DNA of 64,000 nt from Chloroflexota bacterium (GCA_036732045.1 DAINDD010000002.1:16089-80088), one strand, 5' to 3'. Counted from the stretch's first letter, positions 1 through 45,495 are shown. Notes: generated from the sequence alone by a model not told the origin. Numbers and translations: made by a program.

Positions 1-1170
1 CGCACTGAGGACCTCTTCGTGCAGGCGGTTGAACAGCGCCATCAGCTCCGCTCGAGGCTCGGCTTCGGCATACATCCGGCGGTAGTAGGTGGTGAAGAGC
101 TCCGCGGCGGACAAGTGCTGGAGCTCGCTGCCGTCGTCTTGCGGCTTCTCGTCAGTGCGCTCGACGACGATGTCGACGGCGTTGGGGAGCAGCTCCCGCA
201 CCTGTTCAGCGAGCCCAGGGAGCGGACGTTCGACCTTGACGAACACCTTGAGGTACGCGTCGCCGACGTCGCCCGGCAGCGCCGCGATCTCATCGAGCGT
301 GACCCCTTTCTTCGCGAAGCCGATGTTCCGCAGCTCGCGGATCGAGGTCAGCGGGACAGACGTGACCTTGGCCTTGCGGCCGGGCGCGACGTCGATGATG
401 TTGACGCCCTTCTTGTGGATCGCCTCGCCGAAGTCGCACTTCAGCAGCGATCCGCAGTAGTGCGCATTGCTGAGGCCGACGTCCTGCGGCCCGTGGACGT
501 GGCCGAGCGCGATGTACTGCGGCTCTGTCGGCAGGCGCGCCGGCATGATCGTGTAAAGGGCGCCGATGTGCAGCGGACGCTCACCGCTTTCGGCGGGCAC
601 CTTCGCGCCGGCCACGAAGACGTGTGCCATCGCGACGTTAACGGTGTCCGAGCGAAAGCTCTTGCAGAGGTGAGAGAGCATCTGCGCCACGCCGTCGGCG
701 TACTGCTCGATGTGCTTGCCCTCGGTCATCAGCGATTCGAAGTCGCGGACCTTGCGCTCGCTGACCCAGGGGAGCGCGGCGATCACGGCGGTCTCGGAGC
801 CGTCGCGGGACGGCAGCTCAATAACGCCGCCCTCGGCAGCCAGCACGGGCTCACCGACGACGTGGATGCCGAGGCGGCCCAACACCGGCGCGTATGCGTT
901 CATGCGCTTCGGGTGGTCGTGGTTGCCGGCGATGATGACGGCCGGGATGCCGGCGCCGACGAGCTCGCCGGCGAAGTGAAAGAAGATGCGCTCGGCCTCC
1001 GGCGGAGGGACTGCGGAGTCGAACACGTCGCCGGCAACCAGCACGGCATCGACGCGCTCGTCCTTCGCGATCGAGAGCACTTCTTCCAGCGCGGCGATGT
1101 ACTCCGCGTCGCGCTTCTGGTTGCGGAGCGGCTTGCCGATGTGCCAGTCAGACGTATGCAGGAAGCGCAT
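1..1170 (-). CDS. sbcD: SbcD/Mre11-family DNA repair exonuclease (calcineurin-like phosphoesterase); C-terminus runs off the window start
   Basis: Reverse-complement from ATG at 1170 reads MRFLHTSDWHIGKPLRN..., with AGDVFD and IIAGNHDHP metallophosphoesterase motifs. Frame is open to position 1. Start lies 19 nt after the herA stop. Absent from the ORF track because it is truncated. Confidence 0.8.
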   Translation of the reverse strand, partial: MRFLHTSDWHIGKPLRNQKRDAEYIAALEEVLSIAKDERVDAVLVAGDVFDSAVPPPEAERIFFHFAGELVGAGIPAVIIAGNHDHPKRMNAYAPVLGRLGIHVVGEPVLAAEGGVIELPSRDGSETAVIAALPWVSERKVRDFESLMTEGKHIEQYADGVAQMLSHLCKSFRSDTVNVAMAHVFVAGAKVPAESGERPLHIGALYTIMPARLPTEPQYIALGHVHGPQDVGLSNAHYCGSLLKCDFGEAIHKKGVNIIDVAPGRKAKVTSVPLTSIRELRNIGFAKKGVTLDEIAALPGDVGDAYLKVFVKVERPLPGLAEQVRELLPNAVDIVVERTDEKPQDDGSELQHLSAAELFTTYYRRMYAEAEPRAELMALFNRLHEEVLSA

Positions 1171-1188
1171 GACGTTCGCGCCGCCGGT

Positions 1189-2841
1189 CTAGCGCCGGAA
1201 GCCCTTAGGGACTTCTTCGGTGGCGAGGACTTCGTCCGGGCGCGTCGCCCAGGACGGGAAGGGGAGCTGCAGCAGCAACGGCACGGGGATCTCCGGCTGG
1301 TGCATGAACATGCTGCCCGGCTTGAGCAGGGAGGCCCGGGCGCGCGCGGCTTCGGTCAGGAAGCCGTATTCGCCGCGCTGGGCCTCCGCGGTGTCCAGCC
1401 GGCCGACGATGCGATAGGCGGCGTTGGCGACGACGCGGCGCTCGACCTCGCTGGCGGTCTGCTGCGCACCGATCAGGATCACACCGAGGCTGCGGCCGCG
1501 CTCGGCGATATCGAGCACGACTTCCTTGATCGGCGACCAGCCTTCGCGCGGGGCGTACTTGTTCAGCTCATCGAGGACTACGAAGACCAGCGGCTGGCGG
1601 GTACCCTGCGTGTCTTTCTCCGCGAGCAGCTGCTTGAGGACGACGCCGACGACGAAGCGCTTGGCGCGGTCGTGGAGGCCGTGCAGGTCGATGACGTTGA
1701 GCTGGCTCGCGCCCCAGTCGATGCGGTGGCGCTTCTCGTCCTCTGCTGTGTCCAGGCGGCGGATCAGGTGACCGACCGAGTCGGCGACGCCGTGTAGCCG
1801 GCGCAGGAAGGCATCCTGGGTTCCGGTGGCGAGGCTGCCCCTCGAGAAGACGATTTCGCGATTGTCCGAGATATGCGCAACCATTTCTTCGAAAGTGGTG
1901 ATCCTCACGCCGTCCAGCTCTACCCATGATTGGGCGGACGGCTGGTTAAGCGTCGCTTCGAAGAGGTAGCGTTCGACGACGGTGACGGCGTACGAGAGCT
2001 GGCTCGTCTCCGAGTCGGCTTCGGCGAAGAGGAAGCGCAGGAGGCGGCCCTGGCAGAACTCACGTAACGACCAGACGTAAGCCGTGACGCCCTCCGTGCG
2101 GGAGCTGAGGCTGTGCGTGATCTCGAATCCGCCCTTGGCCGCCGGCGCCCAGAGGCCGACGTCGGCGAACGGACCGCACGGTAGGCCGAGCTGTTTGTAC
2201 TTCTTCTCATCGTCGAGGGATATGCGGTTGTTCGGCTTGTCGGCGAACATCAGATCTTCGCCCTTCACATTGAAGATGACCGCGCGCGCGTTGTGGCGGT
2301 TGGAGCCGAGCGCGTCGGAGTGGAAGAGCGAGTACAGCAGGAACATCGCGCACGAGGTCTTGGTGGCGACGCCGGAGATGCCGGAGACGTTGACGTGGGC
2401 GCCGCGCGTGCCGTCGAGGAACTCCAGGTTGCCCCAGATCACGTCGCCCTCGCGGGAGAGTCCGGCGGCGAAGCGGTTGCGCATCTGGTCGAAGTAGAGC
2501 GCCGTCTCGCGCTCAGCGTCGACGGCGCGACGGGCGGCCTGCCCCGGCTGCGGCGGTACGAAGATCTCCGGCTCGATGCGGGTCACCGAGACGTGCGCGG
2601 CCGTGGCGATGCCGACGGGTAGGACATCGGTGCGAAAGACGTCAGTGTCGAACTTAGCACCTTCGTACTTGGAGCGGACGATGTCCACGACACCGTAGAG
2701 CGTGATGTCGCCGCGGCCGGGCACCTGCGCATCTACGGCGACGATGTCATCGAGCTGGAGGTACGAGTCGTCGCCGACGCCGACCCAGAAGTCGAGTGGG
2801 AACGCGTCCTCGGTGCCGATCACGCGGCCGACTTCGGTCAT
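1189..2841 (-). CDS. herA: HerA-like FtsK/HerA-superfamily ATPase (DUF87 helicase)
   Basis: 550-aa ORF. Walker-B-like hhhhDE region (LVFVVLDELNKYAP), IGAQQTASEV and RIVGRLDTAEAQ arginine-finger-like segments typical of HerA/DUF87. Start overlaps the nurA stop (2838-2841). Confidence 0.75.
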   Translation of the reverse strand: MTEVGRVIGTEDAFPLDFWVGVGDDSYLQLDDIVAVDAQVPGRGDITLYGVVDIVRSKYEGAKFDTDVFRTDVLPVGIATAAHVSVTRIEPEIFVPPQPGQAARRAVDAERETALYFDQMRNRFAAGLSREGDVIWGNLEFLDGTRGAHVNVSGISGVATKTSCAMFLLYSLFHSDALGSNRHNARAVIFNVKGEDLMFADKPNNRISLDDEKKYKQLGLPCGPFADVGLWAPAAKGGFEITHSLSSRTEGVTAYVWSLREFCQGRLLRFLFAEADSETSQLSYAVTVVERYLFEATLNQPSAQSWVELDGVRITTFEEMVAHISDNREIVFSRGSLATGTQDAFLRRLHGVADSVGHLIRRLDTAEDEKRHRIDWGASQLNVIDLHGLHDRAKRFVVGVVLKQLLAEKDTQGTRQPLVFVVLDELNKYAPREGWSPIKEVVLDIAERGRSLGVILIGAQQTASEVERRVVANAAYRIVGRLDTAEAQRGEYGFLTEAARARASLLKPGSMFMHQPEIPVPLLLQLPFPSWATRPDEVLATEEVPKGFRR

Positions 2842-3824
2842 GCGGCCTCGGCTAGCCGATGGAAGTGTTCCGCGATGCTGTGGCGAATCCAGTCTCGGTC
2901 ACCTAAGTGGTGGTGAAGTCGCGATTCGAGCGCGCTGATGGGATATAGATTCTGCGGAGCTCGCGGGTCCCAAGCTGGTGTGGTCGCGAAGCGCGGCAGG
3001 ATTGCCGTTGAACAATTCGCAAGAAGCATGGCATCGTCCTTGCCGATCATTGCCGAAACTTCGATTCGGACGACGCCGGCAAGTGAGTAGTCGAGTCTTC
3101 CGCGGGGACCGACTCGCATGTACCAGGAGTAGCGACTACTCCCTTCAGTTCCGAACTGAAAGATTGGGGTGCGTGTCCCCGTTTCAAGAGCACTGAGTGT
3201 CCGCATTTGTTCGGCGTTCAAGTAATTCTTGGAGTGGGTCTTTACGTAGCCAAGAATAGCCTCTTCGAGTGGGAGAAGGTACGTAAGGGGTCCGTCTACG
3301 AACGTGAGCGCCGCGAGCCCAGCGCACTCGCGCGCGAGGTCTCCCTCCAATTTGCGCATGAGCACCTGCAACTGAGCCAAGACCTTGGCGCGGGTATTCT
3401 CTTTGACCCCGGCCCCCACGTAGTTGAGCGTCAGACTTCCTGCCGGGATGAGCATCGTCTCGTGCCTTCGATCCGCCCCGATGACGATTCGTCGTTGTAC
3501 TTCTTCGCGGTGAATCTCGGCCTTGCCGTGACGGTGGACGGTGACACCCGCTGCGTATGAACCGAGCAATCCGTACGCCAGCGAGTCATTCGCCTCGTCC
3601 ACGATGCCAGTATCGACGCGACGGACGCCGTCAATGAAGAAAATTGACTCGGGCGTTTCAGATGCAAGTGGCCGGATGACCTGCCAGTCATTCGTCTCGA
3701 CGAAGGCGTCTACATTGTCTGGCTCGTCGTCCTCAAGCTGCAACGCGGACTCGTATGTGGGAGTCCAGGGGTCGAGGCGAAGGGTGTGGGGCATACGTAG
3801 CCGATTGTCGCCCGCCGTTGTCAT
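2838..3824 (-). CDS. nurA: NurA-like 5'-3' nuclease
   Basis: 328 aa. N-terminal IFFIDGVRRVD Asp motif in a NurA-like position. Size, and operon position immediately upstream of and overlapping herA. Confidence 0.55.
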   Translation of the reverse strand: MTTAGDNRLRMPHTLRLDPWTPTYESALQLEDDEPDNVDAFVETNDWQVIRPLASETPESIFFIDGVRRVDTGIVDEANDSLAYGLLGSYAAGVTVHRHGKAEIHREEVQRRIVIGADRRHETMLIPAGSLTLNYVGAGVKENTRAKVLAQLQVLMRKLEGDLARECAGLAALTFVDGPLTYLLPLEEAILGYVKTHSKNYLNAEQMRTLSALETGTRTPIFQFGTEGSSRYSWYMRVGPRGRLDYSLAGVVRIEVSAMIGKDDAMLLANCSTAILPRFATTPAWDPRAPQNLYPISALESRLHHHLGDRDWIRHSIAEHFHRLAEAA

Positions 3825-4172
3825 AAGTCAACGGAAGCAGGCTGGAGATTTGTTGGCAAGGCCCTGATGTCACACTGGCACCGATAGCGCTAAAATCTCG
3901 AGCGACATTTCCGCTCATGCACGCGAGTTATGCTCCGGCAATGACTAAAGCCGAGAACAATCCGATCCCAACCACGACCCACAGCTTTGGCACTTCGCCG
4001 CCGTCGACGGTTGTAGGTATCTGTCCGACCTGCAGCTTCTGGCGCTGGCTCGAAGACCTTAAAAATCACGCCTGTCAACTCGGGTGACCAAGGAAGGAGC
4101 CCCCCAGCACTAACGCAGCGTTGAGTTGTCTGCGGACAAGAGCTTCCATGCTGTCTAACAAAGGAGGCCAGC

Positions 4173-4412
4173 ATGAAAGCGCTACCAATCCAATTCGACG
4201 AATCGATCCCCGCCTGGGAGAAGGCAATCGACGCCTTCTTGGCCGAGAAAGCGTGCCGCTCTGGCTCTATAGACATTCCGTTCGACGTGGCCATCTCCCC
4301 CGACCAAGTCCAACGCGCCAGGAATCCGCTGAACATAATGGCTGTTTTGGACGCCGAAACTGCATCCGTAATCGGTCAACCCCGAAGACCGTCCTCGCCG
4401 CTGCAGATATGA
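4173..4412 (+). CDS. hypothetical small protein (79 aa)
   Basis: Strong RBS AAAGGAGG 7 nt upstream of the ATG. Lies in a locally lower-GC patch. No recognizable domain. Confidence 0.35.
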   Translation: MKALPIQFDESIPAWEKAIDAFLAEKACRSGSIDIPFDVAISPDQVQRARNPLNIMAVLDAETASVIGQPRRPSSPLQI

Positions 4413-4578
4413 ATCGGCGTCGCCACGAGCTAATTCCGGAATTCGACGTAATCCCAAAAACATAAAATTACCAAACGAACTCCCAGTTTTGCCCACTTTC
4501 CCCCATTTCGCCTCTCCAGTCGCACCCTTGCCCCTTATCCCTTTAACGGCTCCCACGGCCGTGCCATCATTTTCATAG

Positions 4579-4887
4579 ATGATTTCGACGGGCCCCAAAT
4601 CCCAGCGTGGCAAAACCGTCTCCAGCCGCAACGCGGAGACGCACGGCATCCTCTCCAACGCACCGGTCCTCGACATCGAAGATCCCGCCGACTGGGACGC
4701 CCACCTCCAGGGCGTCCTCGAGAGTCTAGCGCCCGAAGGCTATCTCGAGACTACGATCGCCCACCGCGTCGCCACACTCCTCTGGCGAATGGCTCGCGTC
4801 GTCCGCTACGAGACCGAGATGATCAGCACCGGCATGGACTACAGGGCGACTTCAGCGAGCACTTGGTGTCGATTCCCGCTTCAATGA
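4579..4887 (+). CDS. hypothetical protein (102 aa)
   Basis: ORF in the low-GC patch. No recognizable motif. Confidence 0.2.
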   Translation: MISTGPKSQRGKTVSSRNAETHGILSNAPVLDIEDPADWDAHLQGVLESLAPEGYLETTIAHRVATLLWRMARVVRYETEMISTGMDYRATSASTWCRFPLQ

Positions 4888-4954
4888 CTCTCGGTGAGGT
4901 CTTTGGTCTTCCGGAAGGCTGGCCCTTTTTCGACCAAGAGCCCGACGAGGACGA

Positions 4955-6103
4955 CTAAAACGCGCTGACGCCCAAAAGTTCTCGGCCAAGGATCAACTTC
5001 TGGATCTGTGTCGTGCCCTCGTAGAGGGAGAGGCCGATGGCGTCGCGGAGGTAGGCCTCCACCGGGTACTCGGCCAGGTAGCCGACGCCGCCGTGCAGGG
5101 AGATCGCGGTGCGGGCGGCGCGGACGGCGGCCTCCGTCGCGAAGTGTTTGGCCATCACCACGTTCTTTGTCGCGGGCTCGCCGGCGTCGCGCTTGCGGGC
5201 CGCCTCGACCGTCAGCAGGCGCGCGGCCTCGCAGTCGGTGGCCATGTCGGCGACCATCTCCTGGATCAGTTGGTGGGCGGCGATCGGCTTGCCCCACTGC
5301 TCGCGGTGTCTGGCGTAGGCGATGCAGGCGTCCAGGCACGACTGGATGATGCCGACGGCGCAGGCGGCGGTGGACGTGCGCCCCGATTCGAGCGAAGTCT
5401 GGGCGATCTTGAAGCCGTCGCCCGCCTTACCGAGCAGACGGTCGTCGCTGACGTGGACGCCGTCGAAGAAGAGCGCGGCCGTGTTCGAGGCGAGGAGGCC
5501 GAGCTTCTCCGTGATCGGCTGCCGTTCCAGGCCGGGTGAGTTGCCGTCGACGAGGAAGGCGCTGATCCCTTTTGCGCGTGCGCCGGGGTCGGTCTTGGCG
5601 AAGACGACGATAATGTCGGCCTGACAGCCGTTGGAGATCCAGAACTTGCTGCCGGAGAGCACCCAGCCGCCCTCGTTGCGGACGGCGGCCAGCTCCATGC
5701 CGGCGGGGTCAGAGCCGGCGTTGGGCTCGGAGAGGGCGAAGGCGCCGATCTTCTTAGCGCCGAAGAGGTCCGGTAGCCAGCGGGCGCGCTGCTCGTCCGT
5801 GCCGAAGACGTGGATCGCGGTGCTGACGAGCGAGAGCTGGACAGTCAGCGCCGCCGTGAAGACAGAGGGGCTGGCGCCGCCGATCGCCTCGCAGAGGAGA
5901 ACGTAGGAGACGTTGTCGATGCCTGCGCCGCCGTGCGCCTCCGGGAACGGCCCGGCCAGCAGGCCGTTATCGGCGAGCTTACGCATGATCTCAAGCGGAA
6001 ACGATTCGTCGTTGGCGCGCTCGCGGACGTGGGGACGGATCTCGCGGTCGGCAAACGACTTCGCGGTCTGGTAGATGAGTCGTTGAGCTTCGGTCAGTTG
6101 CAT
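4955..6103 (-). CDS. acyl-CoA dehydrogenase
   Basis: ACAD signatures: GGxG, FxISNG, and the C-terminal YEGTTQIQ motif. Start taken at the internal MQLTEAQRL (M14 of the ORF). Confidence 0.9.
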   Translation of the reverse strand: MQLTEAQRLIYQTAKSFADREIRPHVRERANDESFPLEIMRKLADNGLLAGPFPEAHGGAGIDNVSYVLLCEAIGGASPSVFTAALTVQLSLVSTAIHVFGTDEQRARWLPDLFGAKKIGAFALSEPNAGSDPAGMELAAVRNEGGWVLSGSKFWISNGCQADIIVVFAKTDPGARAKGISAFLVDGNSPGLERQPITEKLGLLASNTAALFFDGVHVSDDRLLGKAGDGFKIAQTSLESGRTSTAACAVGIIQSCLDACIAYARHREQWGKPIAAHQLIQEMVADMATDCEAARLLTVEAARKRDAGEPATKNVVMAKHFATEAAVRAARTAISLHGGVGYLAEYPVEAYLRDAIGLSLYEGTTQIQKLILGRELLGVSAF

Positions 6104-6185
6104 GTGGGGCGCTCCTGCTCGTGGATGCGGCCAGTCTATCACCCGACGCTTTAACCTTCGCGCGCTCTAGGTCTAGACTGAGGTT

Positions 6186-7772
6186 GTGCGATCGAGCATC
6201 GCGAAACTGCGCTCGGCCGGCAGCTATCTCGCCTCGCTGGCGCTGGTGGCGTTGGTCTGCGGGCCGATAGCGGGTCTGCGCGAGGTCTCGGACGTCAGCA
6301 ACTCCTCGATGCTCTTCCTGCTGCCCGTTCTCGCCAGTGCCGTGTTATTCGGGCGCGGGCAGGCGATCTTCGCGGCGGTCGCCTCGTTCTTCGCCTACGA
6401 CTTTCTCTTCGTCGAGCCGCACTACACGTTCACGGTTTCGCACAGCGATGAGTACATGGCACTCGGACTGCTGCTGGTCACGGGCGTGATCACCGGCCAG
6501 CTCGCGGCGCTTCTCAGGCAGCGCGCGCTGGAGGCGGAGGCTCGTGAGAAGGAGGCCGTAGTTCTGTACGACGTTGTGCGGCTAATGGTCGAGCCGGAGC
6601 TTGAGCGCGCCCTGACGTCGGTCGCCGAAAGGCTGCGCCGGGAGCTGGCGCTGGCCGCCGTGCTGATCACGTTCGAGGAGCGGAACACGCCCAGCGTCCA
6701 GGCCGACGTAGGCGACATCGAAGCGATCAGGGTGGCGCAGCGGGCGGCGGGCGTGCCGGAGATGATCCTGGGCTCAGGGCAAGAGCCGACGGGCGCCGAG
6801 CGAGGCAAGCCCGGCCGCTGGATCCGGGTCGTTCCTCTGCACACCAGAGGCCCGGGCCCGCGTCCCGGGGGAGACCGCGCCCTCAGCATTCCGATCGATG
6901 TCGATGGGCGCCGCGCGGGCTCGATCGTACTCGTGCGGGGCGCGGGCGCGTCGCCTCTTTCGCGGGCCAACGACCGGCTGCTGATCGTCGTGGCCAACCA
7001 ACTCGGCCTGGCGATGCAGCGACTGCGGCTGCGGCGCGAGGCAACCGAAGCCGAGATCCTCCGCCGCACCGACGAACTGAGGACGGCGCTGCTCAACGCG
7101 GTCTCGCACGACCTGCGCACGCCTCTCTCATCGATCATCGCCTCGGCCGGCAGCCTCCTTCAGCGGGACGTGCAGTGGACGGAAGCCGAGCGCCGGGAGT
7201 TCACCCGAGCCATCGTCGAGGAGGCCGATCGGCTGAACCGGCTCGTCGGCAATCTGCTTGATCTTTCGCGCATCGAAGCCGGCAGCATCCGGCCGGAGAA
7301 GGGCTGGTACGACCTCGGCGCGCTGGTGGACGAAGTGGCCGGCCGCCTGCGTCGCATCTCTGCGGCGCACTCGCTGGTGCTGGACGTGCCCGAGCATCTG
7401 CCGCCGGCACATTTCGACTACGTGGAGATCGACCAGGTGATCTCTAACCTAATCGAAAACGCAGTCAAGTACACGCCGGAGGGGACGACGATCCGCGTTT
7501 CCGTTCGTGCCGCCGGAGACCAGGTAGAGATCGAGGTCGCAGACAGCGGCCCTGGCATCCCGGAGGATTCCCTTAGCGAGATCTTCCTTCCGTTTTACCG
7601 CGCGACTCCCGGCGCGGCAGCGCGGCCACAGGGGAGCGGCTTGGGACTGGCCGTCGCGCGCGGGCTGGTGGAGGCGCACGGCGGCCGCATTTGGGTAGAG
7701 AACCGTCGCGAGGGCGGCGCGCGCTTCGTCTTCACATTGCCGCTTTCGGACCGGCCGGCGGCGGCGGCATAG
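6186..7772 (+). CDS. sensor histidine kinase, KdpD C-terminal type (DUF4118 membrane domain + GAF + HisKA + HATPase_c)
   Basis: N-terminal 4-TM region is closely similar to the KdpD membrane domain (SSMLFLLPVLASAVLFGRG...DFLFVEPHYTF). H-box SHDLRTPLS. G1/G2 boxes (DSGPGIP, GSGLGLAVA). Confidence 0.85.
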   Translation: MRSSIAKLRSAGSYLASLALVALVCGPIAGLREVSDVSNSSMLFLLPVLASAVLFGRGQAIFAAVASFFAYDFLFVEPHYTFTVSHSDEYMALGLLLVTGVITGQLAALLRQRALEAEAREKEAVVLYDVVRLMVEPELERALTSVAERLRRELALAAVLITFEERNTPSVQADVGDIEAIRVAQRAAGVPEMILGSGQEPTGAERGKPGRWIRVVPLHTRGPGPRPGGDRALSIPIDVDGRRAGSIVLVRGAGASPLSRANDRLLIVVANQLGLAMQRLRLRREATEAEILRRTDELRTALLNAVSHDLRTPLSSIIASAGSLLQRDVQWTEAERREFTRAIVEEADRLNRLVGNLLDLSRIEAGSIRPEKGWYDLGALVDEVAGRLRRISAAHSLVLDVPEHLPPAHFDYVEIDQVISNLIENAVKYTPEGTTIRVSVRAAGDQVEIEVADSGPGIPEDSLSEIFLPFYRATPGAAARPQGSGLGLAVARGLVEAHGGRIWVENRREGGARFVFTLPLSDRPAAAA

Positions 7773-7774
7773 CG

Positions 7775-8473
7775 ATGAGCAAGGGCGCGCGAGTCCTCGT
7801 CGTCGATGACGAGCCGGGCATCACGAAAGCGATCAAGTCGAACCTGTCCGGGCACGGGTTCCAGGTGGAGATCGCCGAGAATGCCGCCTCCGCGCTCGAC
7901 GCCTACGATCGCAGCCGGCCGGACATTGTGATCCTCGACCTCGGCTTGCCCGATGTGGACGGGTCCGAGGTGATCCGCCGCGTCCGCGGCGACGGCAATA
8001 CACCGATCATCGTGCTCTCTGTTCGCGGCGCTGAGCGCGACAAGGTGGCGGCGCTGGACCTTGGTGCCGACGATTACCTGACGAAGCCGTTCGGCGTCGA
8101 GGAGCTGCTGGCTCGGATCCGGGTCGCTCTTCGCCACGCGGCGCACCCGGCGGCGGGGGCCGAACCCGTGTTCAAAACCGGCGACCTCGAAGTCGATCTC
8201 GAGCGGCGACGCGTCCGGACCTCGGGCCAGGAAGTCCACCTGACGCCCACGGAGTACGATCTGCTCCGCGCCTTCATTGAGAACCCGGACCGCGTGCTGA
8301 CCGACCGCATGTTGCTGCAAGCAGTATGGGGCGGTGAGTACGGGGACGAGGCGCACTATCTGCACGTCTACATGGCCCGCCTGCGCAAGAAGATCGAGCC
8401 GGACCCGCAGCGCCCGCGCTACCTGCAAACGGAGCCGGGCGTGGGCTACCGGATGACCACCACGACGGATTAG
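7775..8473 (+). CDS. OmpR/KdpE-family response regulator
   Basis: Receiver domain (VLVVDDEP, ILDLGLPDVDG, TKPF) plus winged-helix C-terminus (GYRM). Start is 2 nt after the kinase stop. Confidence 0.85.
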   Translation: MSKGARVLVVDDEPGITKAIKSNLSGHGFQVEIAENAASALDAYDRSRPDIVILDLGLPDVDGSEVIRRVRGDGNTPIIVLSVRGAERDKVAALDLGADDYLTKPFGVEELLARIRVALRHAAHPAAGAEPVFKTGDLEVDLERRRVRTSGQEVHLTPTEYDLLRAFIENPDRVLTDRMLLQAVWGGEYGDEAHYLHVYMARLRKKIEPDPQRPRYLQTEPGVGYRMTTTTD

Positions 8474-8662
8474 CGATCCGCGCCCCGCACCCTCCAACCC
8501 CGTGACCCGGAGCACCACCCACACCCTCTAGCGGGTGCCTCGGGCTCGCCCGCGGCCGCGTCAGAATCAGAGTTGCTCGCTCACAACGTTGAGTAATCAT
8601 TGATGGGCAGCGGCTCCTTGTTGGCGTGCCGTTGAGACGCCCTGCGGGACACTCGTCTTGCG

Positions 8663-9043
8663 ATGGGTATCGGCAAGAAAGTGCTCCTGGTAGAGGACGA
8701 GGCGACTCTGCGCGGCATCATCACCCGGAACCTCGCCGCGCGGGGCCATACGGTCACGGAAGCTGCCAGCGCGCGGGAAGCCCTGGCGCGGCTGAGCGAG
8801 GCGCGCCCCAACCTGATGCTGCTCGACATCAGCCTGCCGGACCGCTCGGGTTGGGACGTCCTGCGCGAGATGCGCCGCCAGGACAAGAACGTTCCGGTGG
8901 TGATCACTTCGGCTGTGCGCGTAAGCCAGGAGCGGATTGATGAGTTTCGGCCGCTGGCGTTTCTCCCCAAGCCCTTTTCGCTGGAGGCTCTCCTGCGCAT
9001 CGTTGCGGCGGCGCGGCCAAAGGAAGGCGAGCTGGTTCCGTAA
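8663..9043 (+). CDS. single-domain CheY-like response regulator
   Basis: 126 aa, receiver domain only (VLLVEDE...LLDISLPDRSG...PKPF). Confidence 0.8.
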   Translation: MGIGKKVLLVEDEATLRGIITRNLAARGHTVTEAASAREALARLSEARPNLMLLDISLPDRSGWDVLREMRRQDKNVPVVITSAVRVSQERIDEFRPLAFLPKPFSLEALLRIVAAARPKEGELVP

Positions 9044-9345
9044 TGGATGATCCTGAGCTAGATGAGGTCTGCGCACCGCGACGGGCGGAGCGGACTCGCG
9101 CTGATCGACGAATCACGCTTGGCCAGGCCGAAGCACTTTTGCGGTCGGCTTGCCTAATGCTTCGCGAGAAGCCCGGCGCAACGGTCAGCACGATGACCGT
9201 GAGCTTACCCCTCGACGAAGATCAAACGACTGATTACCTCGAAGGCCTGACTGCTCGTCTTGCGAGCGAGTACGGTTTGCTCGCTGAAACCGCGGAAAGC
9301 GGACTTCACTTGAAGGTGCGACTGCTGAGGGTAGCAGCCGAGTGA
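9043..9345 (+). CDS. hypothetical protein (100 aa)
   Basis: Sits between the receiver gene and the permease. Stop overlaps the permease start (ATGA). Confidence 0.35.
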   Translation: MDDPELDEVCAPRRAERTRADRRITLGQAEALLRSACLMLREKPGATVSTMTVSLPLDEDQTTDYLEGLTARLASEYGLLAETAESGLHLKVRLLRVAAE

Positions 9346-11579
9346 AGGGCGACCGCGGCCGCTTTTCGGTGCGCATACCGCGGCCGATTCGGTCCGAGGC
9401 CGGCGTCGCTGTCAAACAGCCCGTTCCGTCCGACGGAGAGAGCACGGCTTCCCGAACGTCGTCGGCATCGGCTGCGCCGGCACGACCAGCCGAGCCCAAG
9501 GATCTACACACGCGGATCGTCGTACCGCGCCAACAACGCTCGACTGAACGCGAGTTTCTTCCAGGGACCGAGCTGCGCGAAGTACGCTACGGCGCCGCCT
9601 CTCGCGGGCCCTATCTGCGAGTCTTGCGACACCAGCCGTTCACGCGGCCGGGCGGCGGCTATCTCCAAGCGACGATCGAGTCGAGCCAGCCTCGCGGTCG
9701 TCTAGAGCGCGCCGTCGCGATCGTCAAGCGCGCTGCGCTCGGCACCCCGTTCGCGACGGCCCGGTTGGCTCACGAGCGCCTGACGAAGGTACGCGCGCTG
9801 GGGGTCTTCTCATCCGACCCCCTCTCCTCCGCAGCGTACAGCGCAGAGGAGATCATGCTTGTCCTGCTGCTCGCCGGTACGGGCGCGCTCTATCTGACCC
9901 TGCCAATCACAGGGGCCCTCCTGGCGCTGCTCTGGACCGTGCGGCTCTCCTATATCCAGACGATCAAAGCTTACCCGAACGGCGGCGGCGCCTACATCGT
10001 CGCCCATGAGAACCTTGGGGTTACGCCAGCCCTTATCGCCGCAGCCGCATTGCTCGTGGACTACGTGCTGACGGTCTCGGTGAGCGTGGCGGCGGGTATT
10101 GCCGCGATAACCTCCGCGGCACCGGCGCTCTACAGCCTGCGGGTTGAGCTGGCGGTGCTGGCGATCGCCGTCATCACCTGGGGCAACTTGCGCGGGATTC
10201 GGGAGTCTGGCGCCATCTTCGGACTGCCCACCTATTTCTTCATCGTGACGTTCTCGACGATGATCCTGGTCGGCCTGGTAAAGCTCGCAATCGGCGACGC
10301 GCCGGGCACGCTGCTTCACTCTGCACCGACCACACAGCAAACAGTAGCGGTAAGCGGACTGAGCGTGTTCCTCGTCCTGCGTGCCTTCTCGTCGGGTGCT
10401 GCCGCGGTGACCGGCATCGAGGCGATATCAAACGGCGTGCCGGCGTTCAAGCCGCCGGAGCCACGTAATGCCCAAATCACGATGCAGTGGGAAGCCGCCT
10501 TTCTTGGCGTATTTCTGCTTGGCGTCGCCCTTCTCGCCACTCGCTACGGGATCGTCCCCAGGCCTGACGAGACAATGGTGTCTATCCTGGGGCGAGAAGT
10601 TCTGGGGAAGAATGTGCTGTACTACGCCTACCAGGTGGGGACGGCCGGCGTACTCTTGCTCGCCGCTAACACCGCTTATGCCGATTTCCCGCGATTGAGT
10701 GCCATCCTGGCGCGGGACCGGTTCGCACCGAGGCAGTTGGCGTTCCGGGGCGATCGGCTGGCGTTCTCGAACGGCATCATGTTCCTGGGAGCGACCGCCG
10801 CAGTCTTGCTCATTATCTTTCAAGCCGAGGTCACGAAGCTAATTCCGCTCTACATTCTGGGCGTGTTCATCTCGATGACGCTGTCCCAGTCCGGGATGGT
10901 CCGGCACTGGCTTCGCTTACGCGAGCGCGGTTGGCGGATGAGCCTCGCTCTAAACGGATTCGGCGCGGTGGCGACCTTCGTCGTGGTCTTGATCGTCGGC
11001 GCGACGAAGTTCACAGAGGGCGCCTGGATCTCAGTGCTCGCGATGCTCGCTCTGTTCATTGTGTTCACGCTGATCCACCGCCATTACGAGTGGTTCCAGC
11101 GACGCATCCGGATTGATGAGACCGCACCGACCGGGCCCACAACGGCATCGGTGGAGCTGTCCCGCGAACGCGTGATCATACCAGTCGACGATGTCAACCG
11201 GATCACAATGAACGCCGTCCAGGTCGCGCGTGAGATTTCGGACAACGTGACGGCGGTGCACATTACGGACGACACCGAGGAGGCGACCGCCGTCGGAGAG
11301 CGGTGGAAGCGAGCAGCGCCTGATATTCCGTTGCAGGTGATCGAGTCGCCCTACCGTTCGTTCACGGCGCCGCTTCTGGCATACGTTGAGTCCATAGCGG
11401 GCGCGGCCGGCGAGGTGCCGGGGCAGAAGGTCGTGGTTATTTTGCCGACATTCGCCCCGAGGCACTGGTGGGAGCGTGTACTTCACAACCGCGACGTCTT
11501 GCGCCTCAAGCCTTTCCTGAAGGCGAACGACGCCGTGCGCGTCATCGAATGCCCTTATCGGCATGACCGCCCGACCTAG
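9342..11579 (+). CDS. APC-superfamily permease with a C-terminal cytoplasmic domain (KimA-like K+ transporter candidate)
   Basis: 745 aa. Low-complexity N-terminal extension, about 12 TM segments (APC fold), roughly 170-aa soluble C-terminus. Architecture resembles KimA/YdaO. Confidence 0.65.
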   Translation: MKGDRGRFSVRIPRPIRSEAGVAVKQPVPSDGESTASRTSSASAAPARPAEPKDLHTRIVVPRQQRSTEREFLPGTELREVRYGAASRGPYLRVLRHQPFTRPGGGYLQATIESSQPRGRLERAVAIVKRAALGTPFATARLAHERLTKVRALGVFSSDPLSSAAYSAEEIMLVLLLAGTGALYLTLPITGALLALLWTVRLSYIQTIKAYPNGGGAYIVAHENLGVTPALIAAAALLVDYVLTVSVSVAAGIAAITSAAPALYSLRVELAVLAIAVITWGNLRGIRESGAIFGLPTYFFIVTFSTMILVGLVKLAIGDAPGTLLHSAPTTQQTVAVSGLSVFLVLRAFSSGAAAVTGIEAISNGVPAFKPPEPRNAQITMQWEAAFLGVFLLGVALLATRYGIVPRPDETMVSILGREVLGKNVLYYAYQVGTAGVLLLAANTAYADFPRLSAILARDRFAPRQLAFRGDRLAFSNGIMFLGATAAVLLIIFQAEVTKLIPLYILGVFISMTLSQSGMVRHWLRLRERGWRMSLALNGFGAVATFVVVLIVGATKFTEGAWISVLAMLALFIVFTLIHRHYEWFQRRIRIDETAPTGPTTASVELSRERVIIPVDDVNRITMNAVQVAREISDNVTAVHITDDTEEATAVGERWKRAAPDIPLQVIESPYRSFTAPLLAYVESIAGAAGEVPGQKVVVILPTFAPRHWWERVLHNRDVLRLKPFLKANDAVRVIECPYRHDRPT

Positions 11580-11648
11580 CATCATCCCATAGCGGACCGG
11601 TCGGTGCGCTCGGCTCACCAGGAAAAGCGAGCAGCGTGTTGCCCGCGC

Positions 11649-12251
11649 TCAATACTCGACGACGACATCAAACGCCGAAAGCAGTGACATTGCCTCTGGG
11701 TAAGAGAATTTCGCCTTCTTAGCCTTGTTGGCGGTGAGATCGATCGCATAGCCTTTCGCGCCGACGAAGTTTGCACCGCTGAGGTTGGTGTGCAGAAACT
11801 TGGCGCCGGTAAAGTCGGTCCGCTGGCAATCAGCTCCCGTCAGGTCGGCTTCCGAAAAATCGACTTCCAGCCCGCTGCAGTTGGACAGTCTCTTGAGCCT
11901 GAGGCCAAAGAAGCTCGAGTAGTCCAGCGCACACCGGTCGAAGGCTGCGGAGAACAGTAGCCGATCAGTCTTTGTAGAGCCAACGACTGTCCAATCAACG
12001 CCGGCCAGTTTCGAGTCGAGAAACTCCACGTCCACGAACCGGCAGTTCGGCGCGCTGAGAAGGCTCAGGTCGCAGGCCATAAACTTGCAATTGGTGAACC
12101 GGCAGTGGGAGAGTGCAGCCTCCGTCAGGATGCATCTCTCGAACGTGCAAGAGTCGAAATCGCTGGATGTAATCCGGACGCCCGGCAATTCGGCGCCCTT
12201 GAAGGTTACTCGTATATGGTTCTGGTGGCTTTCGGACAGCTCCACAGACAT
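11649..12251 (-). CDS. pentapeptide-repeat protein, Qnr/McbG/MfpA-like
   Basis: 200 aa. Two blocks of A(D/N)LxG pentapeptide repeats and a Qnr-like C-terminus (EAMSLLSAFDVVVEY compared with Qnr ...ASLLMERLGIAVIG). GC is lower than the neighbours. Confidence 0.7.
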   Translation of the reverse strand: MSVELSESHQNHIRVTFKGAELPGVRITSSDFDSCTFERCILTEAALSHCRFTNCKFMACDLSLLSAPNCRFVDVEFLDSKLAGVDWTVVGSTKTDRLLFSAAFDRCALDYSSFFGLRLKRLSNCSGLEVDFSEADLTGADCQRTDFTGAKFLHTNLSGANFVGAKGYAIDLTANKAKKAKFSYPEAMSLLSAFDVVVEY

Positions 12252-12331
12252 ATTGTAGGTGCAAGAAGTGCCGTCGCCGCGCCGGTGACGACGGGTGGCC
12301 CCTGATGGAATACTATTGCAAGGGAGACTGA

Positions 12332-13054
12332 ATGGTTCTCGGGAGGGTGGCTGAATCCCAGCGCGAGGAAGCGCCGCGTGTCCTTATCGTGGACGACGAC
12401 GAGTCGCTGCTCGCCGCCCTGGACCTGGCGCTGACGCGTCGCGGGTTCCGCATCGTCACGGCAAGGGAGGCCGGCGAAGCCTTCGGACGCCTGGAAGACG
12501 CCGGGCAAGTCGACTTGATAGTGCTGGACGTGATGATGCCCGGCATGGACGGCGTCACCCTCTGCCGCTTGCTGCGCGACAGGACGTCAACGCCGATGCT
12601 GATGCTGACCGCCCGCGACGCCGTCGCTGACCGCATCGCGGGACTGGAAGCGGGAGCAGACGACTACTTGCAGAAGCCGTTCGACCTGGACGAGCTGGTC
12701 GCGCGGCTGCTGGCGCTGCGCCGACGGGCGCTTCGGAACCAGGGCCCCGAAGGCGTCGAGCGCACCTACGAAGACATCACGCTGGACTCGCGCACCTGGT
12801 CGGCGCGCCGGGCCGGCCGGAACCTGGGCTTGACACCGACGGAGTTTCGCATCCTGGAGCAGTTGCTGCAGTCGCCGGAATCCGTGCGCAGGCGTGAGGA
12901 CCTGATGCGCGCGATTTGGGGAGAGAACTGGGTGGAGGCGGATTCCGGCACGCTGGAGGTGCACATCGCCAACCTCAGACAGAAACTGGAGCGCGGCGGT
13001 GGCTCGCGGCTGATCCACACGATCCGCGGCGTCGGCTACGTGCTGAAAGCGTAA
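12332..13054 (+). CDS. OmpR-family response regulator
   Basis: Receiver + trans_reg_C (VLIVDDDES, DVMMPGMDG, GVGYVLK). Confidence 0.9.
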   Translation: MVLGRVAESQREEAPRVLIVDDDESLLAALDLALTRRGFRIVTAREAGEAFGRLEDAGQVDLIVLDVMMPGMDGVTLCRLLRDRTSTPMLMLTARDAVADRIAGLEAGADDYLQKPFDLDELVARLLALRRRALRNQGPEGVERTYEDITLDSRTWSARRAGRNLGLTPTEFRILEQLLQSPESVRRREDLMRAIWGENWVEADSGTLEVHIANLRQKLERGGGSRLIHTIRGVGYVLKA

Positions 13055-13057
13055 GCG

Positions 13058-14458
13058 ATGTCGTTGCGGCTGCGGCTGACGTTCCTCTGCGTGGCCCTGG
13101 TGGCGGTCGTCATCGCCGGGTTCGCCGTGACGACGTATTTCATAGCACGGCACCGGATCTACAGCAGCTTCGACGATAGCCTCACCGCGCAGGCCAACGC
13201 GATCCTGGGGCTGCTGCCGGCCGGCACGCTCTCGGAGCCGCTGGTGCAGGGCCGGCGCCTGGAACTCGATCAGCAAGCGGCCGCAGGGGCGCTCTTCCAG
13301 ATCAGGACGACCGACGGCAACGTGCTCTACTCTTCCTTCCGCGGCTCGCCTGCACTGCTGCCGCGGAGCAAATCGCTCGATGTCCAGGCGTTCTTCGAAG
13401 GCAACGTTGCCGGTGGGCATTTGCGGTTCCTGTATCTGCCCGTCGACACACCGGACCACAACGGCGGCAGCATTGAGGTGGGCCGCTCAACGAACGAGAC
13501 GTTCGAAGCTCTATCGGAGATGCTGTACGCGCTTGTGGCGGGCAGCGTGCTTGCGCTGTTCCTGACGTTTGTGCCTGCCTACTACATCGCTGGACGGGCC
13601 CTTCGCCCGATCCGCGATGTCTCGCGCCTGGCCCGGCGGATCGAGCGCACCGGCGACTTCAGCCAGCGGTTGCAAGACCGTAAGACGAGCGACGAGACGG
13701 GCGAGCTAATCGCGACGTTCAACGAGATGATCGAGCGCGTCGACCAGACACTCGTCGCGCAGACGGAGTTCCTCGCCGACTCGTCCCACGAGATGCGTCG
13801 TCCGCTGACGATCCTCCGCACTAACCTCGACATCTTGCGCGATCCGGGGCTGCCCGCCGCCGACCGGGCGGCCTGCCTGGAGCGCATGTCCCGAGAGGCA
13901 CACGCGATGAGCGCCCTCGTCGGCGATCTCCTGCTCCTGACCCGCGACAAGACGCAGTCGTTGCAGCGCGTTCACGTAGATTTCTCGCGGCTCTGCGCAG
14001 ATGAGGTCTCGCGCATAGGCTTTGCGGACGGACAAGCGCCCATCGAACCGGACATCGAGCCGGGGCTGGTCGTGATCGGCGACGAAGAGCGGCTGCGCCA
14101 GGTGGTGAAGAATCTGCTCGAGAATGCGGTGAAGTACACTCCGAAAGACGGCCAGGTCCGCCTCCGATTGCACGGCGACGGCGACAACGTCCGTCTCGAA
14201 GTACAGGACACGGGCATCGGCATCCCGGAGGCCGAGCTGGCGCGCATCTTTGACCGCTTCTATCGAGGCACCGAGGCCCGCTCGATGCACGGTGAAGGCG
14301 TCGGGCTTGGCCTGGCGATCGTCAAGTACGTTGTCGAAGGCCACGGCGGTTCGATCAGTGCGTCCGCATCGCCGGGCGGCGGAGCGACGTTCGCTGTAGT
14401 GCTGCCGCGAGGGCCGGTGGTGTCAGAACCTCTTACGGATTTGTTGGCCGTCTCTTAA
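13058..14458 (+). CDS. sensor histidine kinase (TM + HAMP + HisKA + HATPase_c)
   Basis: H-box SHEMRRPLT, N-box LLENAVKYT, G-boxes DTGIGIP and GVGLGLAI. Start is 4 nt after the RR stop. Confidence 0.9.
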   Translation: MSLRLRLTFLCVALVAVVIAGFAVTTYFIARHRIYSSFDDSLTAQANAILGLLPAGTLSEPLVQGRRLELDQQAAAGALFQIRTTDGNVLYSSFRGSPALLPRSKSLDVQAFFEGNVAGGHLRFLYLPVDTPDHNGGSIEVGRSTNETFEALSEMLYALVAGSVLALFLTFVPAYYIAGRALRPIRDVSRLARRIERTGDFSQRLQDRKTSDETGELIATFNEMIERVDQTLVAQTEFLADSSHEMRRPLTILRTNLDILRDPGLPAADRAACLERMSREAHAMSALVGDLLLLTRDKTQSLQRVHVDFSRLCADEVSRIGFADGQAPIEPDIEPGLVVIGDEERLRQVVKNLLENAVKYTPKDGQVRLRLHGDGDNVRLEVQDTGIGIPEAELARIFDRFYRGTEARSMHGEGVGLGLAIVKYVVEGHGGSISASASPGGGATFAVVLPRGPVVSEPLTDLLAVS

Positions 14459-14566
14459 TGCTTCCTTAGGGTTTGGAAACAGCCTTCGCCCGTAACCTTC
14501 AATTGAGGCTTCCCTCGTATCGTTATAGCCTCTGAACAAATGGCTGAGGAGCAGGGAGGGGCTGGT

Positions 14567-15712
14567 ATGAAAGTACCCCCAGCGGCCGTCTACTTCCCGG
14601 AGGAAGACAAACCGCAGATCGCCGCACGCATCATCGAATGTCTGGAAAGCGGAGCACTGACGCTCGGCAAGTACGGGCGCCAGCTGGAGGAAGAGTTCGC
14701 GCGGCTCTGCGACGTCCCTTACGCCGTCGCCGTCAACAGCGGCACCAGCGCGCTGGAGATCATCCTGCGTGCGATCGGCGTCGAAGGGCGCGAGGTGATC
14801 GTGCCCAGCAACACCTTCTTCGCCACGGCGGCCGCGGTCCAGCATGCCGGCGGCCGCGTGCGCTTCGCCGATTGCGACCCGGACACCTTCGCGCTCGACG
14901 TGCAGAGCCTGCGCTCAAACCTGAACGCAAATACGGCGGCCGTAATCCTCGTCCACATCGGCGGCATCATCACGCCGCGCATCCGCGAGATCGAGAAGAT
15001 CTGCCGGCAGGTCGGCGTGCCGCTGGTCGAGGACGCGGCCCACGCGCACGGCTCGACACTGGAAGGCCGCCCGGCGGGCAGCTTCGGTCTGGCGGCGGCG
15101 TTCTCGTTCTACCCGACGAAGGTGATGACCAGCGGCGAAGGCGGCATCATAACGACGCGCGACGAGGCGATCCACCGTGAAGCGATGATCTATCGCGACC
15201 AGGGCAAGGAAGGGTTCACCACCAACTACCACGTTCGCCTGGGTTACAACTGGCGGATGAGCGAGCCCCACGCCGTGATCGGCCTCGCGCAGATGGCGCG
15301 CCTGCCCGAGTTTATCGCGAGGCGACAGGAGATCGCGGCGGAGTACGACGCCGGCATCGGCGCCCTGCGCGACCACATCCGGCCCGTGCGGCCGACGCGT
15401 GGCTCCGTCAGCAACTACTACAAGTACATGGCGATGATCGACGGCGTCGACCGCGCCGACCTCAAGCGCACGATGCGCGAGCAGTTCGACGTCGGCCTGA
15501 GCGGCGAGGTGTACGAGACGCCATGTCACTTGCAGCCGATCTTCGCCCAGTTCCTGGACGGCCCGCTGCCCCAGGCCGAGAAGATCTGCGCGGGCCACAT
15601 CTGCCTGCCGGTCTCCGCCAAGATGACCCTTGAGGACGCGCGTTACGTGCTGACATCGCTGGGCGCGGCGCTTGAGTCGCTCAAAGCGACGCCCGTAGAG
15701 GTGGGAGGCTAG
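14567..15712 (+). CDS. DegT/DnrJ/EryC1/StrS-family PLP-dependent sugar aminotransferase (ArnB-like)
   Basis: Family signature around the PLP lysine (FSFYPTKVMTSGEGG). GGAGG RBS before the ATG at 14567. Confidence 0.9.
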   Translation: MKVPPAAVYFPEEDKPQIAARIIECLESGALTLGKYGRQLEEEFARLCDVPYAVAVNSGTSALEIILRAIGVEGREVIVPSNTFFATAAAVQHAGGRVRFADCDPDTFALDVQSLRSNLNANTAAVILVHIGGIITPRIREIEKICRQVGVPLVEDAAHAHGSTLEGRPAGSFGLAAAFSFYPTKVMTSGEGGIITTRDEAIHREAMIYRDQGKEGFTTNYHVRLGYNWRMSEPHAVIGLAQMARLPEFIARRQEIAAEYDAGIGALRDHIRPVRPTRGSVSNYYKYMAMIDGVDRADLKRTMREQFDVGLSGEVYETPCHLQPIFAQFLDGPLPQAEKICAGHICLPVSAKMTLEDARYVLTSLGAALESLKATPVEVGG

Positions 15713-37221: not shown

Positions 37222-37246
37222 CGCGCTTTGGTGGGCCCGGCTGGAT
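37222..37246. repeat. distal copy of a ~25-bp direct repeat (partial tRNA 3' end; attL-like)
   Basis: CGCGCTTTGGTGGGCCCGGCTGGAT is identical to 38328-38352. Confidence 0.8.
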
Positions 37247-38327: not shown

Positions 38328-38352
38328 CGCGCTTTGGTGGGCCCGGCTGGAT
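38328..38352. repeat. proximal copy of the ~25-bp direct repeat (overlaps the tRNA 3' end; attR-like)
   Basis: Identical to 37222-37246. 17 nt are the tRNA acceptor/T-arm 3' end and 8 nt are flank. Confidence 0.8.
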
Positions 38353-38409
38353 TCGAACCAGCAACCGACCGGTTATGAGCCGGGCGCTCTGCCCTTGAGC
38401 TACGGGCCC
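38336..38409 (-). tRNA. tRNA-Met (anticodon CAU; could alternatively be the Ile2/lysidine type)
   Basis: Reverse complement is GGGCCCGTAGCTCAAGGGCAGAGCGCCCGGCTCATAACCGGTCGGTTGCTGGTTCGAATCCAGCCGGGCCCACCA. Cloverleaf with anticodon loop CUCAUAA, GTTCGAATC T-arm, and an encoded CCA. Confidence 0.85.
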
Positions 38410-45485: not shown

Positions 45486-45495
45486 GTGGGGTTCG

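Follow-up and report, generated by a model that had tools for sequence, protein, structure and literature searches.

A chromosomal nurA-herA-sbcD-sbcC operon of a Chloroflexota bacterium, a candidate bacterial counterpart of the archaeal DNA end-resection module

Introduction

In archaea, a HerA hexamer and a NurA dimer have been proposed to carry out 5' end resection together with Mre11-Rad50 (PMC2288612, PMC4351679). The closest bacterial system described so far is NurA-HerA of Deinococcus radiodurans (DR_0836/DR_0837; PDB entries 7f6d, 7wrw and 7wrx), which carries out translocation-coupled 5' resection (PMC9960219). In Deinococcus and Thermus the nurA-herA pair stands alone, with sbcCD elsewhere, and the link of SbcCD to HerA-NurA in Deinococcus was described as "to be uncovered" (Cheng et al. 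2015, PMC4663267). A one-sentence remark on a single genome, that of Oceanithermus profundus, reported sbcD and sbcC downstream of the herA homologue hepA, in the order nurA-hepA-sbcD-sbcC, and took it to mean that SbcCD had been recruited late (Blesa et al. 2017, PMC5448004). Here we describe the same four families, in the order noted for Oceanithermus (a locus we know from PMC5448004 alone), in a 64,000-nucleotide (nt) stretch of DNA from a Chloroflexota bacterium (GCA_036732045.1 DAINDD010000002.1:16089-80088; hereafter the window), where they form a minus-strand cluster at the left edge. A first reading of this DNA, the original prediction, had proposed an archaeal-style nurA-herA-sbcD operon.

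The cluster is an intact four-gene operon

Gene layout was established from a listing of open reading frames (ORFs) and by direct reading of the minus strand, and the left edge was completed with L001, an 83-kb Joint Genome Institute (JGI) metagenome contig that bears the exact HerA sequence and is 99.99-100% identical to window positions 1-12888. The features are as follows.

1-5, minus strand: first 5 nt of sbcC, with a GTG start at 5-3; the remainder of this gene of 785 amino acids (aa) lies on L001 at 12837-15194
1-1170, minus strand: sbcD, Mre11-type nuclease; ATG at 1170 (MRFLHTSDWHIG...), running past the left window edge with 390 of its 392 codons inside
1189-2841, minus strand: herA, bacterial-type HerA hexameric double-stranded DNA translocase, 550 aa, recognised by a PDB sequence match
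2838-3794, minus strand: nurA, bacterial-type NurA RNase H-like nuclease; probable 318-aa product, within a 328-aa ORF that extends to an ATG at 3824
3795-3859, minus strand: promoter-like block 5' of nurA, invariant in related loci; a putative promoter
3860-4954, no strand: low-GC strain-specific spacer between nurA and an acyl-CoA dehydrogenase gene, outside the operon

The three genes lie as had been claimed, on the minus strand with tight junctions. The 4-nt overlap of nurA and herA (ATGA, 2838-2841) was given correctly, and the spacer between herA and sbcD measures 18 nt (1171-1188) rather than 19. The sbcC/rad50 gene that had been expected beyond the window was found by leftward extension: because the near-identical contig L001 carries an SbcC/Rad50 ATPase gene after sbcD, with its GTG start at window position 5-3, that prediction is confirmed. 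Read with L001, sbcD and sbcC overlap by 14 nt, and a dehydrogenase gene follows 68 nt after sbcC. None of the four reading frames is interrupted in either the window or L001.

No terminator was found on the coding strand inside the operon, nor did a consensus scan detect any coding-strand promoter-like site there, the sole one sitting upstream of nurA. Rfam scans of positions 1-7000 and of the whole window gave no match near the cluster, the only hit being a tRNA-Met at 38335-38409. We conclude that nurA-herA-sbcD-sbcC is a real and intact chromosomal operon, and that its gene junctions are translationally coupled.

HerA and NurA are of the Deinococcus type

The assignment of herA is upheld by a full-length match to the solved D. 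radiodurans protein (drHerA, 7f6d_B), in which residues 4-538 align with 15-601 (phmmer E 1.7e-135, 456 bits), so spanning HAS barrel, RecA-like domain and helix bundle. Both proteins share the unusual P-loop GVATKT as Walker A motif, with K161/T162 at the positions of drHerA K175/T176. Likewise, E195/D196, at the site of the catalytic acid after beta2, correspond to drHerA E219/D220, the Walker B residues D424/E425 to D487/E488, and the DNA-pore arginines R432 and R489 to R495 and R552. All of these are invariant in the family alignment except R489, which is kept in at least 90% of sequences. Mutagenesis of drHerA defined the roles of the Walker, catalytic and pore residues and showed K175, D487/E488, R495 and R552 to be essential (Yang et al. 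2023, PMC9960219).

Profile libraries largely overlook this protein. A Pfam scan of the window HerA returned no family at E 0.1 or better, and none of 120 HerA homologues (0/120) carried a precomputed Pfam domain. The NCBIfam models HerA_Thermprot and HerA_antiphage_2 reached 14.6 bits (cutoff 800) and 13.4 bits (cutoff 850), respectively, and the NCBIfam and PADLOC matches were all weak and limited to the C-terminal ATPase part. NCBI names the homologues "ATP-binding protein", as does RefSeq for the one from Streptomyces. The existing Pfam and NCBIfam HerA models do not cover the bacterial type.

The 328-aa protein proposed to be NurA is indeed a member of that family. It matched D. radiodurans NurA (drNurA, 7f6d_H; residues 14-321) with a phmmer E value of 8.9e-24 and the Thermotoga NurA homologue TM1739 (1zup) with 4.1e-8, and NCBI labels its close relatives as NurA. 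Pfam detected no family in the window NurA even at E 0.1; since the Pfam NurA model PF09376 matches 34 of the 42 aligned homologues (39-73% identical; best E 1.6e-10), we regard this miss as a problem of sensitivity and not as counter-evidence. An AlphaFold 2 model built on the 42 homologues was of high confidence (predicted local distance difference test score, pLDDT, 90.4; predicted template modelling score, pTM, 0.88). Searched with Foldseek, it retrieved drNurA (7f6d_G, E 8e-20, template modelling score, TM, 0.72), TM1739 (1zup, E 2e-15), Sulfolobus NurA (2ygk, E 7e-7) and then EndoV. Identity in the structural alignments was about 26% to drNurA and 10% to Sulfolobus (Sso) NurA, the latter being detectable by fold only.

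In the alignment, NurA W20, D65, K195 and R288 correspond to drNurA W8, D53, K201 and R309, and these four residues, together with E160 and D177, are invariant across the 42 homologues. In drNurA, D53, K201, R309 and the W8/pin motif 10-15 were found to be needed by mutagenesis (Yang et al. 2023, PMC9960219). By alignment, every mutagenesis-defined essential residue of the Deinococcus NurA-HerA complex is conserved here. The likeness thus extends over the full length of both proteins, to the Walker A GVATKT, catalytic, pin, pore and Walker residues, and to the order nurA-then-herA. We conclude from these comparisons that the nurA product is a bacterial-type NurA nuclease, with predicted Mn2+-dependent 5'-3' exo/endonuclease activity as a putative dimer on a HerA hexamer (2:6).

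SbcD and SbcC are ordinary bacterial proteins

The third gene was identified correctly as SbcD/Mre11-type, and its product is an ordinary bacterial SbcD by sequence. The protein, 392 aa on L001, matched the Pfam families Metallophos (8e-15, 56 bits) and SbcD_C (1.9e-9, 38 bits), both over cutoff, and scored 194 bits on TIGR00619 (sbcd; cutoff 77.65). Phosphoesterase motifs I-V are intact (D8xH10, GD48, GNHD 82-85, H183 and GH224xH226), and archaeal Mre11 models aligned to the first ~90 residues only. Pfam had been put forward as a check on all three genes of the original prediction; it recognised sbcD through these two domains and left NurA and HerA undetected.

SbcC, read from L001, carries the Pfam domains SMC_N, AAA_23 and SbcC_Walker_B and the expected series of motifs: Walker A GPTGAGKS at 32, a CPVC zinc hook at 385, LSGGE at 688 and LFIDE at 722. 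It matched E. coli SbcC (6s6v) with E 1.8e-43. Its score on TIGR00618 (sbcc; E 1.4e-83, 281 bits) falls under the cutoff of 478.5, a shortfall probably explained by a short coiled coil in a protein of 785 aa. Like SbcD, it is classed from its sequence as an ordinary bacterial type.

Linkage of herA to sbcD is the rule across phyla

A scan with the HerA alignment, using one genome per species of the Genome Taxonomy Database (GTDB), detected a relative in at least 569 species. The best 80 were taken with 10-kb flanks, and neighbouring genes were identified by tblastn and phmmer against the ORFs of each locus (loci are numbered with the prefix L below). In 72 of these 80 species herA is followed immediately by sbcD in the same orientation, and complete four-gene clusters are present in 62, in line with the co-conservation that had been anticipated. 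The arrangements were distributed as follows.

nurA-herA-sbcD-sbcC: 26 of 80 loci
herA-sbcD-sbcC-nurA: 36 of 80 loci
herA then sbcD, followed by a contig end or with NurA undetected: 10 of 80 loci
contig end before sbcD could be visible: 3 of 80 loci
no sbcCD nearby, a genuine absence (L013, L016, L037 and L056): 4 of 80 loci
unresolved arrangement: 1 of 80 loci

The carriers belong to the Chloroflexota, Acidobacteriota, Actinomycetota, Gemmatimonadota, Myxococcota and Proteobacteria, and the cluster genes share one strand. Candidate culturable carriers are Longispora albida DSM 44784, Actinomadura darangshiensis DSM 45941, Thermoflexus hugenholtzii and Oceanithermus profundus, and the cluster is present on the complete chromosomes OZ240228.1, OY969567.1, OY970161.1 and OZ250164.1. 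The nurA-first order was seen in Chloroflexota, Acidobacteriota, Myxococcota, Proteobacteria, one member of the Solirubrobacterales and one of the Gemmatimonadota; most herA-first loci come from Acidimicrobiia, Nitriliruptoria, Actinomadura, Longispora and Gemmatimonadota. HerA remains 51-60% identical across phyla and forms a compact family (395 clusters at 50% identity, E ≤1e-30). When flanking ORFs of the 80 loci were clustered, no fifth co-conserved gene emerged: the top family was present in 12 loci and resembles, by sequence, a generic ATP-binding cassette (ABC)-type ATPase. Near relatives share a common synteny of acyl-CoA dehydrogenase, a variable spacer, the four genes, an iron-sulfur (FeS)-assembly protein and squalene-hopene cyclase. 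Among 72,556 plasmid records HerA was found in 6, and phages essentially lack it.

Set against the systems described before, the window order equals the Deinococcus/Thermus nurA-herA pair with sbcD-sbcC appended, so that, in contrast to those genera, the pair and sbcD-sbcC lie in one operon. The Oceanithermus report concerned one genome, whereas the linkage found here extends to 72 of 80 species in many phyla and comes in two conserved orders. The arrangement had therefore already been noted in the literature, and the window is a further example of a widespread module. As in the archaeal operons of Sulfolobus, Pyrococcus and Thermococcus, four functionally equivalent families make up one unit, which in those archaea is co-transcribed. 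The label "archaeal-style" is accordingly apt for the adjacency of all four families, tightly packed on one strand, and not for the proteins, which are of bacterial (Deinococcus) type: archaeal HerA and Mre11 models fit them poorly, and Sso NurA is related by fold only. The claim of an archaeal gene order did not stand. The usual archaeal order, that of the Sulfolobus operon, is reportedly herA-mre11-rad50-nurA, whereas the window has nurA first. The gene listing in PMC4351679 agrees with that archaeal order, which recurs in 36 other bacterial loci, mainly those of actinobacterial and gemmatimonadal relatives.

Several peculiarities of single loci were observed. A few actinobacterial clusters contain 1-3 kb of extra DNA, between herA and sbcD in L050, L066, L070 and L080 and between sbcD and sbcC in L035. 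A herA-sbcD-sbcC-nurA cluster is carried by the 452-kb linear plasmid of Streptomyces sp. BB1-1-1 (L097; NZ_CP134205.1, 413751-429379), where its genes are annotated "ATP-binding protein", "exonuclease SbcCD subunit D", "SMC family ATPase" and "hypothetical protein"; it adjoins an ImmA/IrrE metallopeptidase gene and JetABC-like genes (TIGR02680, TIGR02678 and DUF2397). In L084, a Dehalococcoidia relative, recA and recX (1-851) precede the nurA operon by ~7 kb in the same orientation, probably by coincidence.

A conserved block upstream of nurA suggests a promoter and the start codon

The consensus promoter scan selected TTGACT-16-GACAAT upstream of nurA. On the minus strand, the surrounding block comprises TTGCCAACAA (3859-3850), CGTTGACTTATGACAACG (3833-3816, which includes the -35-like TTGACT at 3831-3826) and the -10-like GACAAT at 3809-3804, which ends 9 nt ahead of the ATG at 3794. 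Among six related loci TTGCCAACAA and CGTTGACTTATGACAACG are invariant; TTGACT and GACAAT are spaced by 16-17 nt, and a further 9-10 nt lead to the ATG or GTG of a protein beginning MP..LRLDPW. The block was located in L003 (8900-8953), L004, L083-L085 and L087-L095, preceding nurA of both NurA clades described below, and six metagenome contigs carry it, each time upstream of nurA. No copy was found upstream of any other gene in the window, the fetched loci or the metagenome scan.

The first ATG of the nurA ORF (3824) falls within this invariant, non-coding block, and the frame downstream of it varies among the six loci without in-frame conservation. Because the N-terminus of the NurA family is MPxxLRLDPW, translation very probably starts at the second ATG (3794), giving a protein of 318 aa. 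There is no Shine-Dalgarno sequence before this ATG, which suggests that the nurA mRNA is probably leaderless or nearly so. The conserved block would then be the promoter that drives this near-leaderless transcript.

The 18-mer CGTTGACTTATGACAACG also has 5-nt inverted arms (CGTTG/CAACG) and could act as an operator. We considered it as the mark of a regulon, such as an SOS-like box, and found no evidence of one: it occurs once in the window and, in the fetched loci, only upstream of nurA. In a metagenome scan 6 of 11 matches were nurA promoters, the other 5 lying in unrelated sequence without conserved context. The LexA box is GAAC-N4-GTTC, which CGTTGACTTATGACAACG does not fit.

Single genes of the operon appear to have been replaced

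The 1.1-kb low-GC patch that the original prediction placed next to the operon is real, and it extends beyond the spacer to take in nurA: GC content is 0.55-0.59 over positions ~3000-4800, against a window mean of 0.647. GC content at third codon positions (GC3) is 0.66 in nurA, 0.88 in herA, 0.89 in sbcD and 0.83 in sbcC, making nurA one of three credible compositional outliers among the ~30 genes of the window. In ten relatives nurA has normal GC3 (0.80-0.94).

Gene trees are discordant as well. In the HerA, SbcD and SbcC trees the closest partner of the window is L003 (92, 86 and 76% identity, respectively), followed by L004. The NurA proteins of L003 and L004 are 85% identical to each other and only 39-44% identical to the window NurA (L003, 44%), which groups instead with L083, L084 and L085 (73, 67 and 64%). 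These comparisons involved window 2838-3794, L003 8949-9940, L004 1488-2471 and L083 8001-10769. At the nucleotide level, similarity between the window and L003 ends ~155 nt into nurA and is back exactly at the herA start. In L083, whose flanking proteins are 96-97% identical to those of the window, herA is the low-GC outlier (GC3 0.65), with 62-64% identity to everything, and sbcD is called as a 184-aa fragment.

A replacement of the window nurA alone would be too simple an account, as it is L003 and L004 that hold the aberrant NurA clade, the window NurA being aberrant only in composition. The discordances of nurA, herA and sbcD rather suggest gene-by-gene allele replacement within the operon, and the simplest reading of the sequences is that single genes may have been replaced repeatedly by homologous recombination anchored in the conserved flanks.

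Apart from the promoter block, all related loci lack the 1.1-kb spacer (3860-4954), which is a strain-specific insert. Against these, blastn aligned only the first ~49 nt, which belong to the promoter block, and tblastx gave compositional noise only; Pfam and Rfam searches of the spacer found no match. It contains two ORFs.

4173-4412, plus strand: orphan ORF of 79 aa
4579-4887, plus strand: truncated 102-aa copy of a Dehalococcoidia hypothetical-protein family of ~177 aa, recognised by its homologues

The homologues of the second ORF are 177-178 aa long, and the alignment covers only the first 86% of its 102 aa. The same interval measures 144 nt in L084 (7857-8000), 1.9 kb in L085 (4650-6552), where it holds a DUF433/DUF5615 toxin-antitoxin pair, and 2.7 kb in L083 (5256-8000), where it holds a ParB-like gene and a gene for 3'-phosphoadenosine 5'-phosphosulfate (PAPS) reductase, the latter matching the PADLOC SspD model at E 4e-30. 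This interval, bounded by nurA and the acyl-CoA dehydrogenase gene, is a hot spot for insertions.

The operon probably serves DNA end processing in repair

We put the probability at about 0.78 that this is a housekeeping operon whose predicted products process DNA double-strand ends for recombinational repair, as a counterpart of archaeal Mre11-Rad50-HerA-NurA. The proposal of a joint, archaeal-like end-processing machine is supported by the linkage of the pair to sbcD-sbcC in the 72 species, with no fifth conserved gene. In such a machine SbcCD, an ATP-driven nuclease of the Rad50/Mre11 type that bears a zinc hook, would recognise, tether and clip blocked or hairpin ends. The HerA hexamer would translocate along the duplex and drive DNA into the NurA dimer, where a pin-like N-terminal element may part the strands and the RNase H-like sites would degrade the 5' strand, leaving a 3' tail for RecA. 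The proteins are presumably expressed and active, and SbcCD and HerA-NurA would cooperate physically or functionally.

Several points weigh against this reading. Deletion of nurA or herA in D. radiodurans and T. thermophilus resulted in modest or even improved DNA-damage resistance, and the biological role of bacterial NurA-HerA has been called controversial (PMC9960219); Thermus HepA mutants are in addition altered in competence and DNA donation (PMC5448004). In the window itself, nurA is anomalous in composition and discordant in phylogeny with herA, sbcD and sbcC, and a recently imported NurA might mismatch the resident HerA.

The original prediction had left the role open between repair and defence. 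The evidence leans clearly to repair, and a check against PADLOC gave no convincing defence assignment. It is improbable that the cluster acts mainly against phages or plasmids, with a HerA-driven nuclease and an SMC-like SbcCD sensor destroying linear or unprotected foreign DNA in the manner of RecBCD or of HerA defence complexes. Defence systems in which a HerA ATPase acts with a nuclease or NADase are well established, and Sir2-HerA, DUF4297-HerA, TdpAB, Lamassu LmuB and MADS all combine, as here, a ring- or SMC-type ATPase with a nuclease effector. The resemblance to them is weak and partial: some PDB matches to such HerAs; a low-ranking Foldseek match (rank 7) of the NurA model to TdpAB, which couples a HerA-like with a NurA-like protein; and PADLOC scores of 98 bits (mad3) and 94 bits (LmuB) for SbcC and 38 bits (mad8) for HerA. 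Against these stand 281 bits for SbcC on the SbcC model, about three times any defence-model score, and 456 bits for HerA to the Deinococcus repair protein, compared with at most 19 bits on the PADLOC HerA models, which aligned to the generic C-terminal ATPase part; NurA had no PADLOC match. A defence role would also suit the exchange of single cluster genes between lineages, the conflict-type genes in the hot spot beside nurA in L083 and L085, and the JetABC-like genes next to the Streptomyces linear-plasmid cluster. The flanks, however, contain no Sir2, DUF4297 or methylase partner, and the locus is housekeeping-like: its position is syntenic and stable in near relatives, HerA keeps 51-60% identity between phyla, 72 of 80 species have a fixed gene order, and plasmids and phages rarely carry it.

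A related and speculative idea, to which we give little credence, is that the four-gene module is under genetic conflict and, in lineages that use it instead of RecBCD/AddAB, would also destroy linear foreign DNA. If true, the turnover described above (the nurA clade switch in L003/L004, the low-GC nurA of the window, the low-GC herA of L083 and the mobile-gene hot spot abutting the promoter) would represent escape from phage- or plasmid-encoded inhibitors.

The proteins might alternatively serve another DNA transaction, such as processing of stalled or reversed forks or of hairpins, segregation or DNA pumping, or uptake and donation of DNA as for Thermus HepA. E. coli SbcCD is best known for hairpin cleavage at replication forks, and HerA belongs to the FtsK-HerA pumping ATPases. 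Moreover, Thermus hepA mutants lose competence and the ability to act as transjugation donors and are heat-sensitive (PMC5448004), and Deinococcus mutants are mild after DNA damage (PMC9960219). This too seems unlikely, since the obligatory link to SbcCD and a 5'-3' nuclease suggests degradation of ends and not transport, and membrane, competence or segregation genes are not co-conserved in the 80 loci; such roles would in any case overlap with end resection without excluding it. Finally, that the cluster is decaying or mismatched here, its low-GC nurA (GC3 0.66 against 0.83-0.89 in its neighbours, beside a low-GC spacer with a truncated gene) being a foreign gene that recently replaced the original and has ceased to function with the resident HerA, as the outlier herA and fragmentary sbcD call of L083 might suggest, is very hard to reconcile with the intact state of the four reading frames in both the window and L001, the retention of every catalytic and family-invariant NurA residue, a confident NurA model, and the preserved ATGA coupling to herA and conserved promoter block.

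The repair reading bears on how bacterial NurA-HerA is viewed. Its role has been called controversial because Deinococcus and Thermus mutants are mild or odd, and in these genera the pair is unlinked to SbcCD. Among the 80 closest species, spread over at least six phyla, linkage to sbcD-sbcC is the rule and not an oddity, which on genomic grounds strongly supports a four-protein resection machine of archaeal style in many phyla of bacteria. Better model organisms would be Thermoflexus, Oceanithermus and culturable actinomycetes. Standard annotation overlooks the pair, giving no Pfam match and the RefSeq names "ATP-binding protein" and "hypothetical protein", and repair inventories of Chloroflexota, Acidobacteriota and Actinomycetota consequently under-count the NurA-HerA pathway.

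Other observations in the window

Two indels (window 7081-7091 and 7676-7752; L001 5123-5761) distinguish the otherwise identical L001 from the window, both in a DUF4118/HisKA sensor kinase gene at 6186-7772. The gene is intact in the window (528 aa) and is called in two parts (364 and 182 aa) on L001; either assembly or strain variation could account for the difference.

Further low-GC patches (0.51-0.58) were found at 37200-38700, 44100-45600, 47400-48300, 40500-41100 and 11700-12300, with ordinary metabolic genes as neighbours. One of them holds a 413-aa ORF (44406-45647) without a Pfam match, and another flanks the window's only tRNA gene (tRNA-Met, 38335-38409, minus strand) and includes a low-GC3 pentapeptide/ion-channel gene at 37267-38322.

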